A stretch of 10,704 nt of DNA from IMG/VR virus record IMGVR_UViG_2698536392_000007; one strand, 5' to 3'. The notes below the pieces were generated by a model. That model was not told the origin of the DNA. It searched no databases and was given only the letters and a program-made list of their open reading frames with translations. Source of the DNA: a virus. Taxonomy: Duplodnaviria; Heunggongvirae; Uroviricota; Caudoviricetes. Below, piece after piece: positions 514 through 1,477 of this stretch (positions are counted from its first letter, which is position 1; every line of letters starts with the position of its first letter). A program made the position numbers and the translations under genes.

Positions 514-1010
514 TGCCTCCATCATTACGAAAAGCCGTTGCTGCTGCTATTGGTGGCGGAGCAATTGCTATAGCATCAGTGTTAATTACTGGCCCAAGTG
601 GTAACGATGGTCTGGAAGGTGTCAGCTACATACCATATAAAGATATTGTTGGTGTATGGACTGTATGTCACGGACACACCGGAAAAGACATCATGCCCGG
701 TAAAACGTATACCGAAGCAGAATGCAAAGCCCTCCTGAATAAAGACCTTGCCACGGTCGCCAGACAAATTAACCCGTACATCAAAATCGATATACCGGAA
801 ACAACGCGCGGCGCTCTTTACTCGTTCGTTTACAACGTGGGCGCTGGCAATTTCAGAACATCGACGCTTCTTCGCAAAATAAACCAGGGCGATATCAAAG
901 GCGCATGTGATCAGCTACGGCGCTGGACATACGCTGGCGGTAAGCAATGGAAAGGGCTGATGACTCGCCGTGAGATTGAGCGTGAAGTCTGTTTGTGGGG
1001 GCAACAATGA
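513..1010 (+). CDS. R: SAR endolysin (T4-lysozyme-like muramidase, phage 21 R / RrrD-like)
   Basis: 165-aa ORF whose N-terminus [27 protein letters not shown] is a Gly/Ala-rich signal-anchor-release segment, followed by a lysozyme domain ([12 protein letters not shown]...[18 protein letters not shown]). It is near-identical to the phage 21 R sequence as I remember it, and is coupled to the holin and Rz genes. Confidence 0.93.
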
Positions 1011-1324
1011 GCAGAGTAACCGCGATTATCTACGTTCTGGTCATCTGCCTCATCGTCTGCCTTTCATGGGCTGTTAATCATTACCGTGATAACGCCATCG
1101 CCTACAAAGAGCAGCGCGATAAAGCCACATCCATCATCGCTGATATGCAGAAGCGGCAACGTGATGTAGCAGAACTTGACGCCAGATACACAAAGGAGCT
1201 TGCTGATGCTAATGCGACTATCGAAAGTCTCCGTGCTGATGTTTCTGCTGGGCGTAAGCGCCTGCAAGTCTCCGCCACCTGTGCAAAGTCAACGACCGGA
1301 GCCAGCAGCATGGGCGATGGATAA
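1007..1324 (+). CDS. Rz: Rz i-spanin, truncated by an in-frame TAA; conserved C-terminal coding continues in frame to 1444
   Basis: ATG 1007 overlaps the endolysin stop (ATGA). [31 protein letters not shown] has an N-terminal TM segment and a coiled-coil region matching lambda-type Rz. The ORF track's GTG at 995 is an upstream extension. A TAA at 1322-1324 is followed in the same frame by [39 protein letters not shown], ending at TAA 1442-1444. Confidence 0.75.
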
Positions 1325-1391
1325 AGCCCAGGACTTACAGCAGATGCTGAACTCAATTATTACCGTCTCCGAGGTGGAATCGACAAGATAA
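1206..1391 (+). CDS. Rz1: Rz1 o-spanin lipoprotein, embedded in the +1 frame of Rz
   Basis: [61 protein letters not shown] has a signal peptide with a VSAC lipobox and a proline-rich mature part like lambda Rz1. AAGGAG lies 7 nt upstream of ATG 1206, and ATG 1212 is an alternative start. The ORF-track start at 1176 is probably an upstream extension. Confidence 0.7.
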
Positions 1392-1477
1392 CCGCGCAGG
1401 TTAACTACCTGCAGGAGTACATCAGGACGCAATGCCTGAAATAATTTTTTTTGCAAATCACAAAGTCCATTTAATGA

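Follow-up and report, generated by a model that had tools for sequence, protein, structure and literature searches.

A premature stop codon in the Rz spanin gene of a dusA-associated lambdoid prophage of Escherichia coli O165:H25

Gene organization of the lysis cassette

The DNA analysed here (hereafter, the window) is a stretch of 10,704 bp that corresponds to a complete contig (LNFT01000022.1) in a draft assembly distinct from the closed genomes discussed below. It carries a phage lysis cassette composed of a holin gene, an endolysin gene, and the nested spanin genes Rz and Rz1, the coordinates of which are summarized in Table 1. The holin matches Pfam family PF04971 (Phage_holin_2_1) over model positions 1-63 of 64 (E=1.2e-32) and is designated a 'class II holin family protein' by PGAP, while the endolysin matches PF00959 (E=1.2e-45) and is annotated by PGAP as 'lysozyme RrrD'; the hydrophobic N-terminus of the latter suggests an endolysin of the signal-anchor-release type. 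Rz occupies the cassette position of a spanin gene, directly after holin and endolysin, with its start codon overlapping the endolysin stop codon in the sequence ATGA (1007-1010). The GC-rich hairpin that follows the cassette aligns with a terminator annotated in phage HK75.

Table 1. Features of the lysis cassette, with positions given in the coordinates of the window.
Feature	Position	Strand	Remarks
Class II (phage 21 S-type) holin	307..513	+	Intact; first cassette gene; 68-aa ORF
Endolysin (lysozyme RrrD type)	513..1010	+	Intact; 165-aa ORF
Rz (inner-membrane spanin subunit) pseudogene	1007..1444	+	Full-length homology broken by one nonsense codon
Remaining Rz frame, 105 codons	1007..1324	+	Encodes the membrane anchor, the first coiled coil, and the bulk of the linker
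Rz1 (outer-membrane lipoprotein spanin subunit)	1206..1391	+	+1 frame inside Rz; intact; 61 aa
Premature TAA	1322..1324	+	T at 1322 for ancestral G (GAA, Glu106)
Orphaned Rz 3' part, 39 codons and stop	1325..1444	+	Second coiled coil and C-terminal segment with conserved Cys
Terminator-like GC-rich hairpin followed by T run	1476..1500	+	Downstream of the lysis cassette; fold, z = -2.5

The lysis cassette is separated from the HNH-terminase module by a stretch (1647-2144) that encodes an 85-aa ORF and a protein with a KilA-N/ORF11CD3 domain, an arrangement also present in Stx phages of the same group. The portal region is split into two ORFs, 8020-9384 (454 aa) and 9381-10118 (245 aa), with an overlap of 4 nt. 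PGAP labels this a frameshift, and we considered and rejected it as evidence of decay: Stx1a phage Stx1_132418 is annotated with the same arrangement, its first ORF likewise being 454 aa long and overlapping the second by 4 nt, so that the split portal is a family trait or an annotation convention. The matching portal region of relatives is longer than that of the window by multiples of 162 bp (spans of 2269, 2431, 2593, 2755, and 2917). This pattern suggests a repeat of variable copy number, of which the window carries the shortest form.

Ancestral state of the Rz reading frame

Translation of Rz from the ATG at 1007 yields 105 codons up to a TAA at 1322-1324, followed in the same frame by 39 codons and a second TAA at 1442-1444. 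This agrees with the original prediction, made from the sequence alone, which had further proposed that the first TAA stands in for a sense codon. A megablast search of 1007-1444 against phage records returned 317 records, 135 of which had at least 80% of the query covered. In a DNA alignment with four relatives (Stx1_121427, phi330, Stx2a_F349, and HK75), the position of the stop codon is occupied by GAA, encoding Glu106, in all four. The only difference between the window and Stx1_121427 across the 438 bases is G>T at 1322, giving a nucleotide identity of 99.8%, compared with 97.5% to Stx2a_F349. The wider set of Stx phages (Stx1_121427, 1717, 2851, and Stx2a_F349), together with HK75 and HK97, is 95-99.8% identical to the window over all 438 bases, and in the Stx phages the flanking holin, endolysin, and KilA-N genes are as in the window; the intact genes of this Stx/HK97 group differ from the window allele in encoding a 145-aa Rz, with GAA (Glu106) in the Rz frame and GAG (Glu39) in the Rz1 frame. 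On these alignments, the stop is attributable to a single G>T substitution at 1322 (GAA>TAA, Glu106stop).

One of the relatives, vB_EcoS_phi330 (PV189401.1), itself carries a 1-nt deletion at the equivalent of window position 1258, which frameshifts Rz at codon 84 and Rz1 at codon 18; its record annotates a 384-nt 'Rz-like spanin'. The deletion could have arisen as an error in sequencing or be a spanin defect of independent origin.

With the stop masked, the window Rz protein is 96% identical to that of F349, 94% identical to that of HK75, and 59% identical to lambda Rz. In the lambda alignment the stop lies opposite a sense position, A115, within the L2 linker, and the tail beyond it aligns to the lambda Rz C-terminus, including the invariant cysteine (C143 in the window, C152 in lambda). 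The tail had been predicted to match the conserved C-terminus of lambda-type Rz, which the alignment bears out, and its cysteine to be penultimate, which is incorrect: the residue is third from the end (C-L-K). Rather than unrelated DNA, the sequence downstream of the stop is thus the homologous Rz tail, and the open frame past the stop reflects homology to full-length genes and did not arise by chance.

By score, both the truncated product (77.8 bits, E=1.1e-21, model positions 13-86 of 126) and the product with Glu106 restored (119.9 bits, E=1e-34, model positions 13-125 of 126) belong to the Rz family PF03245 (Phage_lysis), for which the curated cut-off is 25.4 bits. The full-length architecture is not retained: the frame ends at codon 106, with the second coiled coil (CC2) and the C-terminal domain encoded after the stop, and the gene is therefore regarded as a pseudogene of the family and presumably not as a working member. 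PGAP annotates no Rz CDS at 1007-1444, and translation of the 3' part (1325-1444) is now lost.

The embedded Rz1 gene

The 61-codon Rz1 gene has an alternative start at 1212, a lipobox cysteine (Cys20) at 1263-1265, and a lineage-specific Asp39 at 1320-1322. Its assignment rests on a score of 71.4 bits against PF06085 (E=5.2e-20, model positions 1-41 of 41; cut-off 27.9 bits), a signal peptide whose VSAC lipobox contains the invariant Cys20, a proline-rich mature region with PPP and PEP motifs, and its embedding in the +1 frame of Rz; PGAP likewise calls it an Rz1 family lipoprotein (WP_306172472.1). As had been proposed, the Rz1 frame remains open across the Rz stop, where it reads GAT-AAA. 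The accompanying suggestion that the change was silent in Rz1 (e.g. GAC to GAT) has to be abandoned. Base 1322 is position 3 of Rz1 codon 39, and comparison with relatives, including the orthologous O172:H25 prophages, gives GAG as the ancestral codon, which rules out the GAC>GAT scenario and makes the substitution a missense change (GAG>GAT, Glu39Asp). Glu39 is present in 14 of the 15 close Rz1 sequences aligned, the window being the exception. The lambda Rz1 counterpart of this residue is Gln41, of which a text search of the lambda mutational study (PMC5295617) found no mention. Being conservative, the Glu39Asp change is probably tolerated.

Authenticity and distribution of the TAA allele

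A sequencing or assembly error, in which the true codon would be GAA and the stop an artefact of one assembly, was among the explanations initially offered for the interrupted frame. NZ_CP013029.1, from strain 2012C-4227 (a Shiga-toxin-producing E. coli O165:H25), matches the window at 100% identity, and NZ_CP027325.1 (strain 2013C-4830) has zero mismatches to it. The closed reference genome was assembled from PacBio reads only (P5-C3 chemistry, HGAP3), and 2013C-4830 differs from the window by two single-base deletions, at 3307 and 3349 in the intergenic region between the HNH endonuclease gene and terS, which may be long-read assembly errors of the PacBio-only kind. However, the Rz change is a substitution, unlike a homopolymer indel, and the same allele recurs in differing assemblies and read sets. 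Exact-protein look-ups placed the Asp39 form of Rz1 on 131 contigs and the 105-aa Rz on 26, and in 16 of 16 loci fetched through these look-ups (closed genomes, among them Japanese ones, NCBI drafts, and Logan assemblies of SRA runs) the 438 bp including the TAA are identical. With 16 identical loci from independent assemblies, we regard an artefact as so improbable that it can be set aside.

The allele is confined to a narrow lineage. The truncated Rz is also encoded on AP026746.1 and AP026751.1; strains 2012C-4227 and 2013C-4830 belong to clade A of clonal complex CC119, AP026746 to clade C, and AP026751 to clade D (PMC10132054), so that carriers include chromosomes of clades A, C, and D. 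Of the 1668 RefSeq complete E. coli genomes in which the 61-mer around the site occurs, a collection without NZ_AP026746.1, two have TAA, both of clade A, and it was found in 0 of 88 phage records. Public annotation already includes the allele, labelled as a partial lysis protein, and nothing about it falls outside known kinds.

Predicted functional consequences of the truncation

The spanin genes of the window share with lambda Rz/Rz1 the embedding of Rz1 in the +1 frame, the membrane anchor, the coiled coils, the C-terminal Cys, and the lipobox Cys20, although identity is limited to 59% for the restored Rz and 38% for Rz1, and the holin (PF04971) and endolysin (RrrD lysozyme) form a pair of the phage 21 type, in contrast to lambda S/R. 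Lambda Rz consists of transmembrane residues 1-24, a first coiled coil (CC1, residues 27-87), the L2 linker, CC2 (residues 121-150), and a C-terminal domain, and is subject to a strict chain-length requirement (PMC5295617). Of 131 lysis-defective lambda Rz alleles, 82 carry nonsense changes, distributed over 34 positions of the periplasmic domain; stops engineered at codons 151 and 152 cause the same defect, codon 153 alone can be dispensed with, and E150, Q151, and C152 bear on complex formation with Rz1 (PMC5295617). Given that a stop at the equivalent of lambda codon 115 removes both CC2 and the C-terminal domain, the truncated window variant, 59% identical to lambda Rz when restored, should be a spanin null. 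Rz1 alone would then be without function. [quoted passage not shown] A dominant-negative effect of the truncated Rz was considered and set aside, as the lambda missense and site-directed alleles examined for dominance did not block lysis.

The closest functional analogue of the window allele is the lambda Rz Q100am null allele, a laboratory stock (PMC5295617), relative to which the window stop aligns 15 codons further on, at A115. The lambda allele is engineered, amber, and silent in Rz1, whereas that of the window is natural, ochre, and accompanied by Glu39Asp in Rz1. Rz-amber lysogens have been used as hosts for testing plasmid-borne Rz alleles (PMC5295617).

The original prediction had also allowed for a tolerated truncation, i.e. 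a 105-residue Rz that still works with Rz1 or a short Rz that is a natural variant. The truncated product does still match the Rz family model (E=1.1e-21), and its stop falls within the linker, where lambda tolerates a Ser-Gly linker in place of residues 100-115 (PMC5295617). Lambda genetics nevertheless point the other way, as every nonsense allele in the periplasmic domain through codon 152 is lysis-defective (PMC5295617). Moreover, the members listed for the 90% cluster are nearly all 145 aa long, the DNA beyond the stop is recognizably an Rz tail, and the TAA allele is limited to one clonal lineage in a prophage without replication genes. We consider a working 105-residue Rz very unlikely.

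Loss of Rz accompanied by retention of Rz1 has a direct precedent in the Rac prophage of K-12, also a defective lambdoid prophage, in which rzpR is a pseudogene and the embedded 61-codon rzoR is open. The lesions differ in kind: rzpR is of the lambda-like sequence type, unlike the window gene, and is truncated at its 5' end, starting at the equivalent of lambda M56 and thus without a membrane anchor, with no point nonsense mutation. With rzpR/rzoR as precedent, the window case is one of ordinary pseudogenisation.

State of the dusA prophage and its O172:H25 sister copies

The prophage is about 39 kb long and lies between dusA and a 5' fragment of dusA. N, cI, cro, cII, O, and P are all missing from its PGAP annotation: the early-left genes are separated from the phosphatase and Q genes by nothing more than an IS3-family element and a partial IS600, in a region that has a normal layout in phi330. 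The phosphatase gene contains an internal stop. On this annotation, with genes for induction and replication missing, the element is classed as a defective (cryptic) lambdoid prophage. Decay is partial, as in the O165:H25 copy the genes for holin, endolysin, terminase, capsid, and tail are all still open. In NZ_CP013029.1, the integrase beside dusA sits at the tail-fibre/NleG-effector end, away from the early-gene end, and has a DinI gene and a partial capsid gene as neighbours, suggesting that the element is rearranged or composite.

Three tRNA genes (annotated as Asn, Thr, and Gly) lie after Q, upstream of the window, at a place where phi330-type Stx phages carry Ile-Arg-Arg tRNA genes and stx. 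The presence of tRNA genes just downstream of Q raises the question of readthrough, i.e. decoding of the TAA, for example by a prophage-borne suppressor tRNA, to give full-length Rz. But PGAP assigns ordinary identities to all three, ARAGORN agrees on Asn (GTT) and on Gly (TCC), with no suppressor found among the prophage tRNAs, and a suppressor tRNA is ruled out on these calls. Furthermore, the stop is not conserved, all relatives outside the lineage having a sense codon, and no recoding signal was recognised around it on inspection. Readthrough thus merits almost no credence.

Orthologous dusA prophages with the same IS scar are present in two O172:H25 genomes, 2013C-3492 and 90-3040. In both, Rz is 438 nt long and annotated as a lysis protein, so that comparison with these sister prophages locates an intact Rz in the same IS-scarred background. 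The O172:H25 copies have lesions of their own: the phosphatase/Q/tRNA segment is gone, terS has an internal stop, and in 90-3040 the large terminase gene is additionally interrupted by another element. Because the sister copies share the IS scar, the prophage was already crippled in the common ancestor of the O165:H25 and O172:H25 lineages, with each lineage later acquiring its own lesions.

The window differs from the 2013C-3492 copy by 17 substitutions and one 3-nt indel. Within the first 4.4 kb the sister lineages differ at only three positions, two of which are nonsense mutations: Rz Glu106stop on the O165 side, and terS Glu62stop (GAG>TAG, also G>T, window position 3769) on the O172 side. 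These independent G>T nonsense mutations in the sister lineages could hint that the two knock-outs, Rz in O165:H25 and terS in O172:H25, were selected in parallel, the host domesticating, and so blunting, a lysis/packaging cassette that can be trans-activated by co-resident lambdoid phages. Such trans-activation is conceivable, given the 21 prophages listed for strain A2 (2012C-4227; PMC10132054). Stop-creating changes account for 3.5% of all single substitutions in the coding sequences of the window (6.9% for G>T and C>A only), and two nonsense mutations among about nine isolated SNPs exceed the 3.5% base rate with P ~0.04. This test is, however, post hoc and built on very few events, and when all 17 substitutions are counted P = 0.12. 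The remaining changes between the sister copies comprise five missense and two synonymous substitutions, which fits relaxed constraint. Holin and endolysin are generally understood as the cell-killing components; both genes are intact here, and spanin loss should not save the host. In lambda, spanin defects are recessive and complemented in trans (PMC5295617), and a co-induced phage with a compatible spanin would therefore mask the defect. Taken together, selection for parallel knock-outs is an improbable explanation, and neutral decay is favoured because holin and endolysin are intact and loss of the spanin offers no obvious rescue of the host; we infer that the Rz stop is neutral.

Of the options that had been offered for the interrupted frame, spanin inactivation in a decaying prophage is the one supported, with Glu106 replaced by a stop, the immunity and replication region gone, and a further stop in the phosphatase gene. 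We are confident that the TAA is a true, inherited Rz Glu106stop in a decaying dusA lambdoid prophage of E. coli O165:H25 (CC119). The analysis shows the mutation together with its ancestral state, its recurrence across many independent assemblies and, on the evidence of annotation, the defect of the prophage; from lambda genetics we infer that Rz function has been lost. Under this account, the N-cI-cro-O-P region would have been lost, and the IS elements put in place, before the O165:H25/O172:H25 split. The prophage would then have been unable to grow lytically by itself, so that selection on its late genes was relaxed. The G>T substitution at 1322 would have arisen later, on the O165:H25 side, and spread by clonal descent. 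The truncated product is predicted to keep the membrane anchor and first coiled coil and to lack the second coiled coil and the segment that contacts Rz1; without that segment no periplasm-spanning complex would form, making the cassette a putative spanin null even though Rz1 (Glu39Asp) is encoded.

Implications

The Rz gene of the dusA prophage is better labelled as a pseudogene; at present PGAP retains Rz1 alone, and a 105-aa 'lysis protein' is called by other pipelines. The finding has no bearing on Shiga toxin release, because the examined region of the dusA prophage contains no stx genes. The TAA allele provides a clean lineage marker that, among the genomes checked, is present in O165:H25 and absent from the two O172:H25 genomes. 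The locus also illustrates how one base change in the dual-coding Rz/Rz1 segment can terminate one frame while altering the other by a conservative missense substitution.
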